Below, piece after piece: positions 12,821 through 18,759 of a stretch of DNA of 20,267 nt (its first letter is position 1; each line of letters begins with the position of its first letter). The DNA is from Candidatus Nanohalobium sp. Its GTDB lineage: Archaea; Nanohalarchaeota; Nanosalinia; Nanosalinales; Nanosalinaceae. The translations under genes and the position numbers were made by a program. The stretch covers positions 23,409-43,675 of the forward strand of contig JBDGTY010000026.1 of NCBI GenBank assembly GCA_042216335.1, given 5' to 3'. The notes beneath the pieces are model-generated. The model searched no databases. It was given only the letters and a program-made list of their open reading frames with translations, and was not told the origin of the DNA.

Positions 12821-14548
12821 CTACTGCTCGACTACCTCTTCGAACTCGTCTTGCATCTGCTTTTGAATCTCCTGCTTGAGTTCGAGGTAGTCCTCCGAGG
12901 TCTGGAGTTCTGCGATCCGGTTCTTGGAGTCGAGCGCGATGATGTCTTCTACCATCGCTCCGTCTTCCAGTGCATCGTAGGCCTCGTCAGCCCACTCCAG
13001 CACGAGGTCCAGTATCTGGTAGGTTTTGTCCGGGCTGCTGTACTGGTCGACGGGGTGGAAGGCGTTCTGCTGGAGGAAGAACTTCTTGACCATCGTCGCG
13101 ACCTCCAGAGTCAGTCTTTCCCTATCAGGCAATGCGTCCTTTCCTACGAGCTGGACCGTCTCCTGGAGATCTCCGTCCTTTTGCAGGATGTCCCGGGCTC
13201 TCTGGATCTTCTCCGGCCATTCGTCCTCTACTTCCTCCTGGAAGTAGTCGGCCAGTTTCTCGCTGTATCCTGAGTAGCTGTCGTCCCAGTTGATAGCCGG
13301 AAAGTGCCTCTTCTCTGCCAGGCTGGCGTCCAGCGCCCAGAAGTTCTCAACAACTCTCAACGTGTTCTGGGTTACAGGCTCCGAGAAGTCTCCTCCCGGA
13401 GGACTAACTGCACCGATGATGGAGACTGATCCCGGGTCTTCGTCTGCGAGAGGCTGTACCCTTCCTGCCCTCTCATAGAACTCTGCAAGTCTTGAGGAGA
13501 GGTATGCCGGGTAACCTCTCTCACCGGGCATTTCTTCCAGTCTCGCTGAGACTTCACGCATAGCTTCTGCCCATCGGCTTGTCGAGTCTGCCATCAGTGC
13601 AACGTCGAGTCCCATGTCCCTGAAGTACTCTGCGATTGTTACTCCTGTGTAGATGGATGCTTCTCTTGCTGCTACAGGCATGTTTGACGTGTTTGCGATA
13701 AGTACTGTTCTGTTTATGATTTTGTCGCCTGTCTGCGGGTCTTCGAGTTCCGGGAATTCTTCCAGTACTTCTGTCATCTCGTTTCCACGTTCTCCGCATC
13801 CAATGTAGACGATGATGTCTGCGTCGGAGAACTTAGCCAGGGATTGCTGTGTAACTGTTTTCCCTGAACCAAAAGGCCCTGGGATTGCTGCTGTTCCTCC
13901 CTTCGCGATCGGGAACATGCCGTCGAGTACTCTCTGTCCTGTGATAAGTGGTACTTCCGGCCTCATCTGTTCCTCTGCAGGTCTTGCGTCTCTGATCGGC
14001 CATTCCTGCCTCATGGATATCTCTTCCCCGTCTACTACTGCGACTGTTTCGTCCACGGTGAAGCTTCCTTCCTTGATCTCCTCTACTTCGCCTCCCTCGA
14101 TGTGTGGAGGAAGCAGGACTTTATGCTCTCCATAGCTGACCTCTGTCTTTCCCAATGCTTCCCCTGCTTCTATTTCGTCTCCCTCCTCGACCAGTGGTTC
14201 GAATTCGTATTCTTTTTCAGGGTCGATTCCCGGCGCTTCCTCTCCTCTCGAGATGAAGTCTCCACTCTGTTCCTCGAGCTGTGGAAGAGGTCTCTGTAGT
14301 CCGTCGTAGATGGAGCCGAGGAGGCCTGGCCCTAGCTCTACTGAGAGAGGCTGTTCTGTGTTTTCTACTGGTTCTCCTGGTTTTACTCCTGTTGTGTCTT
14401 CGTAGACCTGGATGTAGGCTTTGTCTCCCTCAATCTGGATGACCTCGCCCATCAGGCCCTCTTTACCGACAGATACAACGTCGTACATCTGCGGTTCGAG
14501 ATCGGTCGCGACCACGACCGGCCCTGCAACTTTGTAGATTTGTCCCAT
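12821..14548 (-). CDS. atpA: A/V-type ATP synthase subunit A (catalytic), no intein
   Basis: Walker [60 protein letters not shown]; 575 aa. Confidence 0.98.
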
Positions 14549-14600
14549 TCAAAAATCGCCTCCGCGATTTTCTGCAATCCGAGAAAATCCTTGATTTTCG
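14546..14600 (-). promoter_or_regulatory. Two-hairpin cis-regulatory RNA element, copy 1 (atpA leader)
   Basis: mRNA GAAAAUC-AAG-GAUUUUC-UCGGAUUGCAG-AAAAUCGC-GGAG-GCGAUUUU-UGA-AUG; 43/55 ungapped identity to 16830-16884. Confidence 0.75.
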
Positions 14601-14635
14601 GAAGCGTCTGTCTGCTGAAGATCTGCTTGTGCCAT
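14549..14635 (-). CDS. Putative leader peptide/uORF before atpA (28 aa, MAQADLQQTDASENQGFSRIAENRGGDF)
   Basis: SD AGGTGA at 14646-14651, ATG at 14635, and TGA at 14549-14551 directly abutting the atpA ATG in frame. Confidence 0.55.
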   Translation of the reverse strand: MAQADLQQTDASENQGFSRIAENRGGDF

Positions 14636-14672
14636 TTTTAATTTGTCACCTATAGTATGAATTTCCGAGCGG

Positions 14673-14981
14673 TCACGTGATGTCCGCTCCGATTGCTTTC
14701 TTGATTTTCTCCTGGAGCCGCTCGCTCTCTGCTGTCTCGCTGAGCGCCACAACTACAGGTTCGACCGAGTCTTCTACCTGATTACGGGTTCTTTTCGGAA
14801 GTTGTTCGAGGTCCGTTTCCTCTGCGACCAGGATCCCGATGTCGTCCCTTTCGACCAGTTCCAGGATCTTTTCCTCGTAGTTCTCCGGGTTGAAAGTTTT
14901 CTGGACTCCTGCCAGTTTGAATCCAAGCGTGAATTCCTCGTCACCGATAATCGCTATCTCTTTTTTCTTTTCTTCATTCAT
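14673..14981 (-). CDS. atpF: A/V-type ATP synthase subunit F
   Basis: EIAIIGDEEFTLGFKLAGV...DIGILV...IKKAIGADI; position between C and A. Confidence 0.95.
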   Translation of the reverse strand: MNEEKKKEIAIIGDEEFTLGFKLAGVQKTFNPENYEEKILELVERDDIGILVAEETDLEQLPKRTRNQVEDSVEPVVVALSETAESERLQEKIKKAIGADIT

Positions 14982-14991
14982 CTTCCTTCAC

Positions 14992-15987
14992 CTAGTTCGG
15001 AAGCACGAGTTGCTTCCTGATCGTGTCCTGATTTTGAATTCCTGTCTCCTTCGCCCTGAGAAGCATCCTCAGGTTCTTGACCTCGGTCATCTTCGCCACC
15101 ACGTATCCGAGGATGGAGGAAAGACTTAGGGGCTGCGTGTGGAGCATCCTCAGTGCGTTCTCCAGTCTGTGGACCTCAATCGCGTGCTCGACAGATTCGA
15201 TCTGTGGCTCTACCTCGAGACCCAGTTCGGAGATAACGTACTCCAGAGCATCCTCAAAGTCTCTGTTAATGACTTCCTCGACTTTTCTTCCGTTCTTCGA
15301 GGTCAGCAGTCTTTTCTCTATCTCGTCCTGTGGTATTTCGTATCTCTTCATCCTCAGCGCCATTTTCAGGTTTTCGTATTCGACTTCCTCAGCAACGAAG
15401 TCGCCCAGCGCCCCGTTTCCTACTTCTCTTGAAAGGGCGGTAAGTTCGTCGTAGTAGGCCTGGTCGAGGCCTGACTCGATCTCTGCTAGCGTCTCAGCAC
15501 CCTTGATGTACTCCTGATAGTCTACTTTTGAGTCTCTGAAAACTATAGCATCTTTTACCTGTTCAAACTCCATATCCTTCAGCTCCTCCAGTTTCTCCGG
15601 GCTGATACCGCCGACCGGTACAAGGAACTCTTCGAAGCTTTCCTTACCGGATTTCTTGGCTCGAAGTATCCTTTTCAGCGTAAGCACATCGTACTTCCTC
15701 AAGTATGTCTCTATAACTGTTTCAAGCTTTCCATCTGCCATCTCGACAAGATCTGACATCTCACGTGCCAGATTCTTAGCCAACGCCAGCTCAGCCAGCT
15801 GTACACCGTCGTACATAGATCCAAGCTTGTTGATATCCTCTTTATAGGCTCCTTCCTCCATCTTCCTGGAGATCTCATTCGGTCCCATCTTCAGAAAGTT
15901 CTCGTAGTCCGATGAGTCGTACAGCTTCGCCCTCTTTGCTGATACACGGGCGTACATGTAGGGATAGTCCTTCTGGATTTTAATCAT
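14992..15987 (-). CDS. atpC: A/V-type ATP synthase subunit C
   Basis: YPYMYARVSAKRAKL N-terminus, C-terminal GYVVAKMTEVKNLRMLLRAK, 331 aa, operon position. Confidence 0.93.
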   Translation of the reverse strand: MIKIQKDYPYMYARVSAKRAKLYDSSDYENFLKMGPNEISRKMEEGAYKEDINKLGSMYDGVQLAELALAKNLAREMSDLVEMADGKLETVIETYLRKYDVLTLKRILRAKKSGKESFEEFLVPVGGISPEKLEELKDMEFEQVKDAIVFRDSKVDYQEYIKGAETLAEIESGLDQAYYDELTALSREVGNGALGDFVAEEVEYENLKMALRMKRYEIPQDEIEKRLLTSKNGRKVEEVINRDFEDALEYVISELGLEVEPQIESVEHAIEVHRLENALRMLHTQPLSLSSILGYVVAKMTEVKNLRMLLRAKETGIQNQDTIRKQLVLPN

Positions 15988-16538
15988 TCCTCCACCTCGC
16001 CGAAGAGTTTGTCGGCTACTTCCTTCCTGAAGCGTGATTTCATGTCATCGATGATCTTGTCGACAGAGTAGTTCTTGCTTCTCTCTTCGTCTTCGGATAC
16101 AAGGATGAAGCCTTCGACATCTTTCTGCTCGAAGTCGACCTTCCTCTCATCTACTGCCTCTTTATACTCTTCAGCAGCCTGCACTTTTGCTACATCGAAC
16201 TCTGCCTCTTCCACAGCTTCTCTCACAAGTTTCTTTTTCTCATCGGTTGCAAGGTTCTGTATCTCTTCCTTGAAGTTCCGGAAGGCTTCCTGGATCTTCT
16301 CCTGCTTAGCGGCCAGTTTTTCCTGCCTGGCTTCCATCCTTGCGTTAGATACGACTTTCTTCCTCTCCGCTTCTTTTTCTTCCTCTATCTCTTCTCTTGC
16401 GTTTTCCTTGATTTCTTCTGCTTCTTCCTCTGCTTCTTCGAGGATTTCATTTGCTTCTCTCTGTGCTTCTTCCTCTATACTGTTTGCTTTTTCCCGTGCT
16501 TCCCTGAGGATGTCGTTTTTCACGTCTTGTAGTGCCAT
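15984..16538 (-). CDS. atpE: A/V-type ATP synthase subunit E
   Basis: MALQDVKNDILREA..., N-terminal charged coiled coil, C-terminal GFILVSED...NYSVD...EVADKLF; operon position. Confidence 0.92.
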   Translation of the reverse strand: MALQDVKNDILREAREKANSIEEEAQREANEILEEAEEEAEEIKENAREEIEEEKEAERKKVVSNARMEARQEKLAAKQEKIQEAFRNFKEEIQNLATDEKKKLVREAVEEAEFDVAKVQAAEEYKEAVDERKVDFEQKDVEGFILVSEDEERSKNYSVDKIIDDMKSRFRKEVADKLFGEVEE

Positions 16539-16575
16539 AATATCGTTTTCACGCCTTGATGTGTAGTATGTAGGA

Positions 16576-16597
16576 AAGGAGCCGTTGCCGGCTCCCT
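16576..16597 (-). terminator. GC-rich GNRA-capped hairpin between atpK and atpE (terminator/stabiliser-like)
   Basis: mRNA AG-GGAGCCG-GCAA-CGGCUCC-UUUCC: 7-bp perfect stem extendable to 9 bp, GCAA tetraloop, short U tract. Confidence 0.6.
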
Positions 16598-16610
16598 GTG
16601 AAAGTTTTTC

Positions 16611-16832
16611 TTAGATGAATCCCAGTGCAACCAGTGAGACAACCAGTCCGAAGATAATGATGGTCTCCGGGATAGCTGTCAAAATCAGGACGTTACCGAA
16701 TAGGCTGTCGTCTTCTGCGAGCGCTCCGACGCCAGCACTACCGATTTTGGCCTGTGCATAGGCCGTTCCGATAGCTGCGAAAGCTATCGCGATTCCTGCA
16801 CCGATTGATGGGAAAGCTCCGATTCCTGCCAT
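16611..16832 (-). CDS. atpK: A/V-type ATP synthase subunit K (proteolipid c), single hairpin
   Basis: 73 aa with two hydrophobic helices, AIGTAYAQAKIGSAGVGALAE and the catalytic Glu in AIPETIIIFG. Confidence 0.95.
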   Translation of the reverse strand: MAGIGAFPSIGAGIAIAFAAIGTAYAQAKIGSAGVGALAEDDSLFGNVLILTAIPETIIIFGLVVSLVALGFI

Positions 16833-16884
16833 TCAAAAATCACCTAGGTGATTTTCTGCATGATCAGAAACTCTTTGAGTTTCG
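16830..16884 (-). promoter_or_regulatory. Two-hairpin cis-regulatory RNA element, copy 2 (atpK leader)
   Basis: mRNA GAAACUC-AAA-GAGUUUC-UGAUCAUGCAG-AAAAUCAC-CUAG-GUGAUUUU-UGA-AUG; same geometry as copy 1 with compensatory changes in both stems. Confidence 0.75.
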
Positions 16885-16889
16885 TTCAT
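16833..16889 (-). CDS. Putative leader peptide/uORF before atpK (18 aa, MNETQRVSDHAENHLGDF)
   Basis: SD GAGGTGA at 16900-16906, ATG at 16889, and TGA at 16833-16835 directly abutting the atpK ATG in frame. Too short for the ORF track. Confidence 0.55.
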   Translation of the reverse strand: MNETQRVSDHAENHLGDF

Positions 16890-16917
16890 TGTGTGATTTT
16901 CACCTCAAAATACTGTT

Positions 16918-18759
16918 TTAACTGCGATTTGCTCCGAATGGAGCGTATTCTTTGCCGCCTCCCTCAAAGAACTTTCCGAACATCTCCACGTAGTGGAGTC
17001 GGATTCCCTGAAGGAAGCCTTCCATGATTTTGATGAACGTGTTGAAAACGTGCCCGATCACGAGGATCAATGTACCGAATACAATTCCCATAATTCCTCC
17101 TGTACCGAACGCTGTGTTGGCTATGCTGTTTACAACCGCTGCGAGTGCGACTGCCGCTACCGATACCCCGAAGATCCTGAGATAGGACAGGATGTTTGCG
17201 AGTAGTGACGGGATCTCTACCAGTCCCTCTACTCCTTCCCCAAGGTAGAGAAGCGGTACTGCGAGCGCCATCACCGGTAGCCCCGCCGTCGGGCTGACGA
17301 GGAGTGCTAGTGCTGCCCCTGCCTGGAGTACGTACCACGAACCTTTCTCAAGGAACGCCTCCTTGACGCCATGGTTGATGTACTCGTTGTAGAACCCGAT
17401 GCCGTATCCCAGATTGACGTGGAGTACTCCTATCAGTGCTGAGATTTTGAATACCTGACCCAGGTGCTCCGCCCTGTGGAACACAATCGGGATCTGTTTG
17501 AACAGATGAATACCTGTCACGTGCGCCAGCTCGCTGTGATGGCCGAATATGACGTAACCGAACGCGTCACCGAACAGAAGCCCAAAGAATATCGTGGCGA
17601 CGGATGCATACATCAATGACTTGAAGATCTCCGCGCCCTTCGGGAACATACGATAACCAGCGTAGAAAACCGCCAAGGTCGTCAAACCGTAACCTGCATC
17701 ACCGATCATGAATCCGAAGAACAGCGGGAACGTAAGCATCAGTACCGCCGACGGATCTAGTTCGTTATATCTCGGTACAGCCACGAGGTCCGTCAATGAC
17801 TCGAAAGGCTGCACCGCCCTATTATTTTCGTGTTTTACAGGAGGCTCTTCATCCTCTGCCTCCTCTCTCTGGACGTGGATATTCCCTTCTGCGACATCAG
17901 CCAGAGACTCCTCTACTTCACCGTACTTCTCTTCAGGAATCCATCCCTGGGCGATGAAAGCATGGTCGGTTGTCGCGAAGTTGATCGGTGCCTCCGCCTT
18001 CTCAACCTTCTCAGTCAGAAAGTCCTCGACGTAGAGGAGTTTAACCCTCCATTTCTCGGCCAGGTCCTTTCTGTCATTCTCGACCTGCTCAACCTCGTAT
18101 TCTATGCTTTCCTTCCTGTCATCTATCTCGCTGTAGATCTGCTCCATACTCTTGCTTCCGTCGACACCGGCTTCAGGCACGCGGTACTGCTCCTTCGACG
18201 CATCCTGGATAGCCCCCTCGACCTGACGGGACTTGTCGGAGGAGTAAACTACTGCTGTGGCCGACTCGCCCTCGAAAATCTCGAACCTGTCGGTCATGAC
18301 TTCGGAGCGGAAACTTTCGATGTCCAGCTTTCCCACCCAGACGCTCAATGCTTCAGACTCCTGGAGATCCCTGTACTCAAGTCCAGAACCTTTCAGCCTC
18401 TTGAAGAACTTTCTGTTATCTTTGATCTGTTCGAGCTCCCGCTCGTACTCTTCTTCCTCTGCGTCCAGAGACTCTACCTTCTCCGAGATTTCAGGGAACT
18501 TCTCCTGCATCTTCTCGATCGAGTATGTTTCCTTTTCCGCCTCTACTTCCGGCAGTTTGGACAGGAGCGACCTGACGTCAACAAGTAGTTCGGAGAGTTC
18601 CTCGGCCTCTTCTCCAGGACTTCCCGTCTCCAGTTCGCCATCGTACTGGCTGATATCCATGACTTCGAGCCTGTGAAGCTCTTCGATCACTGCTTCAAGG
18701 TTGTTCTTCGGTCCTGTGACCGATATCCTGGTCATCCGTGTAGGCCTGATCTTATTCAC
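16918..18759 (-). CDS. atpI: A/V-type ATP synthase subunit I (a)
   Basis: PRYNELDPS...TFPLFFGFMIGDAGYG, NILSYLRIFG with the essential Arg, LQGIRLHYVEMFGKFFEGGG. Confidence 0.96.
   Translation of the reverse strand: MNKIRPTRMTRISVTGPKNNLEAVIEELHRLEVMDISQYDGELETGSPGEEAEELSELLVDVRSLLSKLPEVEAEKETYSIEKMQEKFPEISEKVESLDAEEEEYERELEQIKDNRKFFKRLKGSGLEYRDLQESEALSVWVGKLDIESFRSEVMTDRFEIFEGESATAVVYSSDKSRQVEGAIQDASKEQYRVPEAGVDGSKSMEQIYSEIDDRKESIEYEVEQVENDRKDLAEKWRVKLLYVEDFLTEKVEKAEAPINFATTDHAFIAQGWIPEEKYGEVEESLADVAEGNIHVQREEAEDEEPPVKHENNRAVQPFESLTDLVAVPRYNELDPSAVLMLTFPLFFGFMIGDAGYGLTTLAVFYAGYRMFPKGAEIFKSLMYASVATIFFGLLFGDAFGYVIFGHHSELAHVTGIHLFKQIPIVFHRAEHLGQVFKISALIGVLHVNLGYGIGFYNEYINHGVKEAFLEKGSWYVLQAGAALALLVSPTAGLPVMALAVPLLYLGEGVEGLVEIPSLLANILSYLRIFGVSVAAVALAAVVNSIANTAFGTGGIMGIVFGTLILVIGHVFNTFIKIMEGFLQGIRLHYVEMFGKFFEGGGKEYAPFGANRS

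Follow-up and report, generated by a model that had tools for sequence, protein, structure and literature searches.

A double-hairpin leader mini-cistron before atpA, atpK and translation genes of nanohaloarchaea: a candidate element of translational coupling

The coupling of translation between neighbouring cistrons is textbook knowledge. In the attenuation of ermC and cat, a short leader open reading frame (ORF) is combined with four complementary segments, the last hairpin of which holds the gene's Shine-Dalgarno (SD) sequence and start codon, and the stop codon of the leader does not lie on the main start. The Rickettsia palindromic elements, REP/BIME and ERIC are not known to contain an SD-stop-start unit or to be bound to start codons. 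For bacteria and archaea, two forms of coupling have been established (PMC6728339): a structure-dependent form, as at E. coli atpH-atpA or IF3-L35-L20, in which translation of the upstream gene opens a locked downstream start, and termination-reinitiation at overlapping gene pairs, described there for Haloferax volcanii and E. coli, with an SD that was helpful but not essential in H. volcanii. Synthetic bicistronic designs (BCDs; 10.1101/2023.02.09.527918, PMC5995908) place a first SD before a leader peptide, a second SD within the 3' end of the leader and a stop codon that overlaps the start of the gene. Here we analyse a stretch of 20,267 nucleotides (nt) from Candidatus Nanohalobium sp. (assembly GCA_042216335.1, contig JBDGTY010000026.1, positions 23,409 to 43,675), hereafter the window. 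As judged from the ORF list and Pfam, an archaeal operon for an A-type ATP synthase lies on its minus strand, with the subunit genes arranged as H-I-K-E-C-F-A-B-D, and the genes of the catalytic A subunit (atpA) and of the proteolipid c/K subunit (atpK) are each preceded by a short leader ORF that contains a double-hairpin cassette.

The two leaders, of 28 and 18 amino acids (aa) and each with its own SD, were found where an earlier inspection of the letters alone, here called the sequence-only reading, had placed them. The atpA leader (14549-14635; all window features named here lie on the minus strand) comprises 28 codons plus TGA, runs from an ATG at 14635-14633 to a TGA at 14551-14549 and encodes MAQADLQQTDASENQGFSRIAENRGGDF (28 aa). 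Ten nt upstream of its ATG lies AGGTGA (SD1, 14646-14651), homologous to the atpA SD of relatives, and alignment with orthologues identifies its first 12 codons as an ancestral N-terminal extension of AtpA. The atpA gene itself (12821-14548, 575 aa; delimited by ORF, Pfam and orthologue comparison) begins at the ATG of the cassette at 14548, which abuts the leader TGA and is in frame with it. The atpK leader (16833-16889; 18 codons plus TGA) extends from an ATG at 16889-16887, the ancestral atpK start codon by comparison with orthologues, to a TGA at 16835-16833 and encodes MNETQRVSDHAENHLGDF (18 aa); GAGGTGA (SD1, 16900-16906), homologous to the atpK SD of cassette-less relatives, is again found 10 nt upstream. 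The atpK gene (16611-16832, 73 aa; same evidence as for atpA) starts at 16832, directly behind the leader TGA and in frame, and is a few N-terminal codons shorter than its orthologues. The sequence-only reading had also seen the TTT-TGA-ATG junctions with zero spacing, which are present and in frame with the subunit at both genes, and our recount gave the same nine identical residues among the 16 C-terminal ones of the two peptides. The pair of leaders is thus real, and the account of it was incomplete in that the ancestral start, the insertion and the clade-wide family described below lay beyond a single sequence.

Between the two loci, the final 51 nt of the leader plus the ATG align without a gap. 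Fold and covariation define a first hairpin with a 7-bp stem and a 3-nt loop in each (GAAAATC-AAG-GATTTTC at 14583-14599 before atpA, GAAACTC-AAA-GAGTTTC at 16867-16883 before atpK), followed by a 10-nt linker and a second hairpin with a 9-bp stem and a 4-nt loop (14551-14572 and 16835-16856), for which the opening energy was considered as well. The second SD (SD2) occupies the loop and 3' arm of hairpin 2, as GGAGGCGAT at 14563-14555 and as AGGTGAT at 16845-16839; on the RNA level, loop and 3' arm of the window copies read GGAGGCGAU or AGGUGAU. In the atpK copy the final base of hairpin 2 is the T of the leader stop. A pattern search detected a third near-identical copy of the same architecture on another contig of the host genome before a 95-aa L21e-type gene (rpl21e), consisting of SD, ATG, one codon, the 51-nt element and TTT-TGA-ATG. 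The anatomy, covariation, frame and stop geometry and insertion history of the cassette, as laid out here, come from sequence comparison; in general terms it appears as a unit of about 54-57 nt that begins with an ATG, continues with a hairpin of 7 bp and, behind a linker, one of 9 bp in which the second SD lies, and closes with a stop codon that adjoins or overlaps the gene's start.

With the three host copies as its basis, a first covariance model (R1) pointed to about ten further sites in the host genome and had matches in 47 of 61 related genomes, and a second model (R2) was built from 43 copies of 30 genomes. In these 43 aligned copies, 98% of the cells are paired and two-sided, compensatory changes occur at 13 of the 16 base pairs, seven of them among the nine pairs of hairpin 2; neither any of 500 shuffles nor any of six slid registers approached the observed pairing, although the alignment was fitted to the model, which somewhat favours the structure. 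One base pair is A-U, C-G and U-A across the three host copies alone. The stems are A/U-rich and weak to moderate, with mean predicted stabilities of -3.6 kcal/mol for hairpin 1 and -9.8 kcal/mol for hairpin 2. With Rfam 15, no match to the cassette was obtained at the gathering score over the whole window, riboswitches, ribosomal protein leaders and thermometers included; at E<=10 over 14400-17100 only the MS2 operator appeared (E=3.6; 14.7 bits, where the gathering score is 40), a match that we regard as chance. Two further pairings were considered. An attenuator-like 2:3 pairing, of the 3' arm of hairpin 1 with the 5' arm of hairpin 2, has no covariation support: its duplex energy is -1.93 within copies and -2.15 between copies, and 1846 of 2000 permutations were equal or better, as compared with 0 of 500 when the same permutation test was applied to the true helix 1. 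A pairing of linker CAU or CAC with the AUG or GUG start is seen in some copies, with CAT occurring only together with ATG starts (21 vs 0) and CAC in 16 of 24 copies with a GTG start; as a general feature it is real in part only, the start codon being fully paired in 32 of 100 minimum free energy (MFE) folds.

What the cassette retains was followed at 118 unique sites in 100 loci, comprising the best match per genome, 60 further high-scoring matches with flanks and the ATPase loci. The main start was taken as the start codon, at the 3' end of the element, of an ORF with 35 codons or more, and it was present at 102 of the 118 sites (76 ATG, 25 GTG and 1 TTG). An ATG lies within -12 to +3 of the first base of the element in 83 of these 102 copies, exactly at -5 in 55 of the 83, and sequence conservation starts sharply at this leader ATG. 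The sequence-only reading had left to be checked whether orthologues keep SD, ATG, frame and the TGA-ATG junction. In 83 of 83 copies the frame set by the ATG is open through both hairpins and has its stop within -12 to +11 of the main start, and an SD-like 5-mer precedes the ATG in 66 of the 83, as compared with 13% of random windows at the same loci. The other two frames stop in that range in 4 and 22 of the 83 copies, and early in 63 and 32. Counted from the main start, the leader stop has its first base at -3 (TGA-ATG) in 22 copies, at +1 in 31 (ATGA/GTGA), at -2 in 13 (TAATG type) and elsewhere in 17, so that 66 of the 83 leaders end with the overlap or the spacing of a few nt that is expected for termination-reinitiation. 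Stop motifs at the junction are in the frame of the leader in 69 of 72 cases, where chance would give one in three. Each of the three junction types occurs together with the ATG offset of -5 (in 17, 19 and 6 copies); therefore small changes in loop or linker length accompany a change of the junction. Even the exceptions mostly follow this geometry, since 15 of the 19 copies without a nearby ATG have a longer ORF or one that starts with GTG or TTG, and three of the remaining four are tRNA-type sites. Among these 15, five leaders of about 35 codons (loci L175, L176, L177, L198 and L187, of which L176 is in the S24e orthologue group) run through four hairpins and still end at the main start.

The peptide, in contrast to the frame, is not conserved. 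In the commonest frame it reads M-x-E-N-Q-R-F-S-G-H-A-E-N-H-x-G-D-F, and an ATG displaced by one or two bases yields TKIKDFL... or RKSKIF... from the same RNA, the same hairpin thus being read as ENQRFS, TKIKDF or RKSKIF; compensatory changes in hairpin 1 exchange N/T/I against F/V/I, and the C-terminal residues vary (GDF, VIFE, VVF, GGL). The earlier caution that the similarity of the two window peptides may simply follow from constraint on the RNA is borne out by the use of three frames through one hairpin and by compensatory changes that alter residues. To judge from this comparison, it is translation as such, as far as the main start, that has been preserved.

The same data bear on the two alternatives that the sequence-only reading had raised, namely readthrough of the UGA, and in-frame removal or ribosomal bypass of the 51-nt segment, either of which would give AtpA and AtpK with the upstream N-terminus. 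Both junctions of the window are in frame, the leader start corresponds to the true gene start in orthologues, so that precise removal would restore the ancestral protein, and the same hairpin module occurs within a tRNA intron that must be spliced. Over the family, however, the leader is in frame with the gene in only 25 of 83 copies, three frames being used, and 44 of the 83 junctions are ATGA/GTGA or TAATG overlaps that neither mechanism could use; the in-frame TGA-ATG junction, correctly seen in both window copies, is not the general arrangement. An excised segment would not need the second SD, kept in 92 of 102 copies, nor the start codon, kept at 102 of 118 sites, and an open leader frame would be pointless in it. 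No bulge-helix-bulge motif, with its 4-bp helix between two 3-nt bulges, was apparent in the MFE folds inspected (window and sampled copies), in which no search aimed at this motif was made. As general mechanisms, readthrough and removal are therefore unsupported, and we hold them to be very improbable.

The signals for initiation were compared next to the 3' end of 16S rRNA, which was taken from another member of the family since the host assembly lacks this gene. Indeed, no 16S rRNA gene was found in the host assembly, despite its rating as 96% complete. The 16S 3' end of the family member reads GGAUCACCUCC, and therefore GGAGGUGAU is a full SD. The loop and 3' arm of hairpin 2 have the consensus GGAGGYGAU, which is complementary to this 16S end, and the 92 of 102 copies with a second SD are those with an SD-like 5-mer before the main start. 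In the predicted structure SD2, as the 3' arm of hairpin 2, is masked by codons 10-13 or so of the leader, which form the 5' arm. Opening the region from -15 to +4 is predicted to cost on average 11.6 kcal/mol at main starts and 5.1 kcal/mol at leader starts, as compared with 4.8 kcal/mol at 43 orthologous atpA and atpK starts without a cassette; thus the leader start resembles an ordinary start, and the main start looks locked.

We consider an obligatory, leader-dependent translational coupling, by termination-reinitiation, by unmasking or by both, to be the most probable function of the arrangement, with a probability of roughly three in four. In such a mechanism, hairpin 2 would lock the region of the main start and make it a poor site for free ribosomes. 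A ribosome would instead start at the accessible, ancestral SD and ATG, melt the weak hairpin 1 and then the stronger hairpin 2, and terminate at the junction with SD2 4-12 nt behind the stop, in the exit channel of the ribosome. It could then restart at the adjacent or overlapping main start, or leave the site open for a new small subunit. By this route, the output of atpA, atpK, rpl21e and dozens of genes of the translation apparatus would be slaved to initiation on a common leader. The sequence-only reading had proposed the core of this model, in which ribosomes on the leader melt the SD-hiding hairpin and reinitiate; over the 118 copies it is the proposal best supported by the frame and stop geometry and by the masking, all of them comparative data. 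Translation of the leader, dependence of the main ORF on it and any regulatory use of this dependence are what we infer from them.

Several points speak against coupling or limit the case for it. SD2 is only partly paired, its GGAG lying in the loop, and the start codon is fully paired in only the 32 of 100 MFE folds given above. The energies hold for 37 C and standard salt, and the cytoplasm is of the salt-in type. The models contain the 3' sequence ...GAATGG and the best matches were sampled, so that coding-type copies and TGAATG junctions are over-represented, and the copies are related by descent, so that the counts do not represent independent events. The body of the element has two to three open frames by its composition, also in 15 of 16 non-coding copies, and openness alone is weak evidence for this reason; the weight of the argument lies on the agreement of the ATG frame with the junction stop. 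Finally, hairpin 1 is conserved, and occurs also in a tRNA intron and before 16S rRNA, yet it has no role in pure coupling.

The comparison of orthologous loci indicates how the arrangement arose. Among 30 genomes of the family, 20 atpA loci and 23 atpK loci have no leader arrangement, and these cassette-less loci begin at an SD and ATG homologous to those of the window leaders. Their AtpA starts with an ATG behind the same SD and has an extension of 2-13 residues, a congener reading MAQQSTVQRESA-DGEIYKV where the window reads MAQADLQQTDAS-(cassette)-MGQIYKV, and their AtpK starts with an ATG behind GAGGTGAAAAyCACACA, which corresponds to the leader SD and ATG of the window. At rpl21e both congeners align perfectly on either side of a clean gap of 57 nt. 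Contigs of relatives in a second metagenome span both window sites without a cassette: in one, 14545 and 14603 are connected by three letters, which bring back the Asp codon seen in the orthologues, and in the other eleven letters stand between 16815 and 16887. From the orthologue starts, the rpl21e gap and the metagenome joins, we conclude that the gene had its ancestral start codon where the leader now starts, and that the cassette, with its hairpins, SD, stop and ATG, was inserted just behind it; at atpA the leader has as many as 28 codons because the insertion lies behind the 12-codon N-terminal extension. All three host copies are absent from the same sites in both congeners examined, which suggests that they were recently gained in the host lineage. 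The sequence AATG stands on both sides in two of the three host insertions. In another genus, atpA is preceded by two cassettes in tandem (locus L127, 2852-2904 and 2936-2991), the downstream one being near-identical to that of the window, its 12 preceding leader codons included.

Such a history would also fit a mini-element, selfish or duplicative, that has spread to the starts of genes without a regulatory function for the host, and that persists because its own SD, stop and start make the insertion nearly harmless. This view is compatible with the coupling mechanism as such. It is favoured by the clean, lineage-specific insertions at rpl21e, atpK and atpA and by the patchy distribution. At E<=1e-4, R2 had a match in 41 of 70 genomes of the order, with 1-25 copies each: in 34 of 49 genomes of the window's family, in 2 of 10 and 4 of 8 of two other families, and in 0 of 1 of each of two more. 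None was found at this threshold in several genomes that are 96-99% complete, the overall range being 0-25 copies, and four genomes of the window's genus have 11, 11, 17 and 1. The similarity of copies can be read both ways. The three host copies are 89% alike, above the 73-76% or so of copies generally. Across the whole sample, however, identity is 0.73 between copies of the same genome, 0.73 between copies of different genomes and 0.76 between orthologous ones; homogenisation of copies within genomes was not seen in this sample, and the figures fit constraint better than bursts of copying followed by decay, so that the consensus of the cassette seems to be held by constraint. A Y1 (HUH) transposase (PF01797) was not found in the 96%-complete host genome by a search whose control was positive in 6 of 14 reference genomes, and the element has no known mechanism of mobility. 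The near-identity of copies has a practical effect in that repeats break short-read assemblies and create joins: one metagenome contig leaves the atpA cassette at about 14576 and continues into the rpl21e leader.

A further point against a purely selfish element is its strong target bias to genes for ribosomal proteins, translation factors, Spt4 and ATP synthase. Among 99 downstream proteins scanned, the most frequent families were S24e (6), the A/B ATPase N-domain (6) and S3 (5), then EF-type GTPases, L21e and Spt4 (4 each), and S19, S13/S15, SUI1, S27e, L13 and the c/K proteolipid (3 each); L2, L4, L1, L11, exosome RNase PH and class II aminoacyl-tRNA synthetases were found as well. The genes served are thus mostly those of ribosomal proteins, translation factors and ATP synthase subunits. 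In the host genome the coding copies precede atpA, atpK and the L21e gene and, as read from translations, likely also the genes of L39e, L13, S28e, S4 and S11; further coding copies, likewise read from translations, stand before the gene that follows rpl21e and before those of a Cdc48-like ATPase and of a small membrane protein. With copies also at places where they would be neutral, namely in a tRNA intron and between tRNA genes, on one side and this bias on the other, we regard an element of no use to the host as possible, at clearly less than even odds. The gene bias and the sequence constraint point to a function in the host; mobility is suggested by the patchy distribution and by insertions that are clean and recent. 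The two are compatible.

The non-coding copies deserve separate consideration. The double hairpin is found inside the 157-nt intron of a tRNA gene of the host genome (gene at 1389-1618 of locus L011; contig C16, 37643-37872), and again between two intron-bearing tRNA genes of a congener (genes at 50-239 and 426-585 of locus L172). The very long inserts in these tRNA genes, of 157, 119 and 88 nt, are at the canonical intron position; the three long-insert genes were missed by ARAGORN and found by the Rfam tRNA model. In addition, the 130 nt or so upstream of a family member's 16S rRNA gene contain three sense-strand hairpins with stems of the GAAAAUC/GAUUUUC type (locus L241, hairpins at about 50-135, identified by stem type; 16S at 180-1655). 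The loop of hairpin 2 lacks GGAG in the non-coding copies, and therefore the SD in hairpin 2 is specific to the mRNA copies, as an adaptation of them. The hairpins may also have a role unrelated to translation. In a cultivated nanohaloarchaeon, four unclassified and very highly expressed non-coding RNAs shaped as hairpin-hinge-hairpin-tail have been described (PMC10266531); they may or may not be related to the hairpin module.

These copies give some weight to an explanation in which the hairpins are functional and the leader ORF is secondary. A shared RNA-binding protein, salt or temperature would act on the GAAAAUC/GAUUUUC hairpins, with mRNA leaders, pre-rRNA and pre-tRNA as targets, and the main ORF would be initiated de novo whenever hairpin 2 opens, independently of the leader. 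The conservation of hairpin 1 and of the stem sequences across genes and genera would be accounted for, as would the same type of hairpin before 16S rRNA and in or beside tRNA genes, and the A/U-rich stems of weak to moderate strength would fit as well. What it leaves unexplained is the ATG at -5 in 55 of 83 copies, the leader frame that is always open, and the stop that tracks the main start through three frames. We therefore consider an action of the hairpins independent of the leader to be unlikely, and prefer leader-dependent coupling.

For the purpose of such coupling, three possibilities can be named: a common gate on the genes of the translation apparatus and ATP synthase that answers to a factor, salt or temperature; a standardised start, insulated against the coding sequence; or a tolerated mobile mini-cistron. 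A more far-reaching and rather doubtful proposal combines several of these elements. A self-propagating mini-cistron would have wired translation and ATP synthase genes of Nanohaloarchaeota into a leader-gated regulon, its hairpins being read by a single factor, salt or temperature and shared with pre-rRNA and pre-tRNA. If this were true, the cell would match its production of ribosomal proteins, translation factors and ATP synthase to the output of rRNA and tRNA, by a feedback of the Nomura type or by an archaeal equivalent of the TOP regulon of eukaryotes, built from a mobile element.

The host genome of about 1.02 Mb is assembled in 74 contigs with 49% G+C. Among the 80 loci listed for the window AtpA, the one close named relative is a nanohaloarchaeon, with 82% identity, and the other 79 belong to distant archaea or bacteria; the DNA of the window is present in a salt-lake metagenome, and no RNA run with this region was listed among the sequencing runs searched. 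Within the operon, the gap of 72 nt between atpK and atpE contains a G+C-rich hairpin, GGAGCCG-GCAA-CGGCUCC followed by UUUCC (16578-16595, minus strand), 15 nt past the atpK stop. It may be a terminator-like or stabiliser-like element, which would favour an excess of the K subunit.

A mechanism of this kind is known as such. As far as Rfam and the literature searched allow us to say, a conserved, repeated and insertion-derived leader mini-cistron that serves a regulon of core genes in DPANN archaea has not been described: no repeated leader mini-cistron of this type was found in Rfam, and the literature searched on nanohaloarchaea gave no link to leader peptides, upstream ORFs, SD-hairpins or repeats of this sort. 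For annotation, the cassette matters since gene callers will tend to misplace starts or to miss leaders in genomes that carry it. If the coupling reading holds, this is a case in which essential genes received a different start codon through a small insertion, and the cassette offers a handle on the co-ordination of ribosome and ATP synthase synthesis in DPANN archaea, with genomes of about 1 Mb and few regulators.

With palindromic repeats, the cassette has in common that it is short, hairpin-forming, multicopy and patchy and that its insertion is tolerated in transcribed or coding sequence; unlike for REP/RAYT or IS200/IS605-derived repeats, no RAYT or Y1 transposase was found in the host genome. 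It shares with ermC and cat the short leader ORF, the four complementary segments and the SD and start in the last hairpin. In contrast to them it has no conserved (stalling) peptide, uses three frames, shows no 2:3 covariation and places the leader stop on the main start; a leader-peptide attenuation of the ermC type finds no support, given the missing 2:3 covariation and the unconserved peptide. With the overlapping gene pairs, the cassette shares junctions of ATGA, TGATG/TAATG or zero spacing and an SD located within the upstream ORF, a few nt ahead of its stop; those pairs, however, are full-length genes, whereas the cassette is a leader with built-in hairpins that has kept its SD in 92 of 102 copies. 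E. coli atpH-atpA resembles it in that the downstream start is paired with part of the upstream ORF, and moreover concerns an alpha-type subunit of ATP synthase, but the upstream cistron is here a dedicated mini-ORF of about 18 codons, derived from an insertion and repeated in front of dozens of genes that are unrelated to each other. In its architecture the cassette equals the BCDs, in which the helicase activity of the translating ribosome opens the second start. BCDs were engineered to remove effects of structure, whereas the cassette is natural, archaeal and equipped with two stable hairpins; it would, if the coupling holds, be the natural counterpart of this synthetic design.

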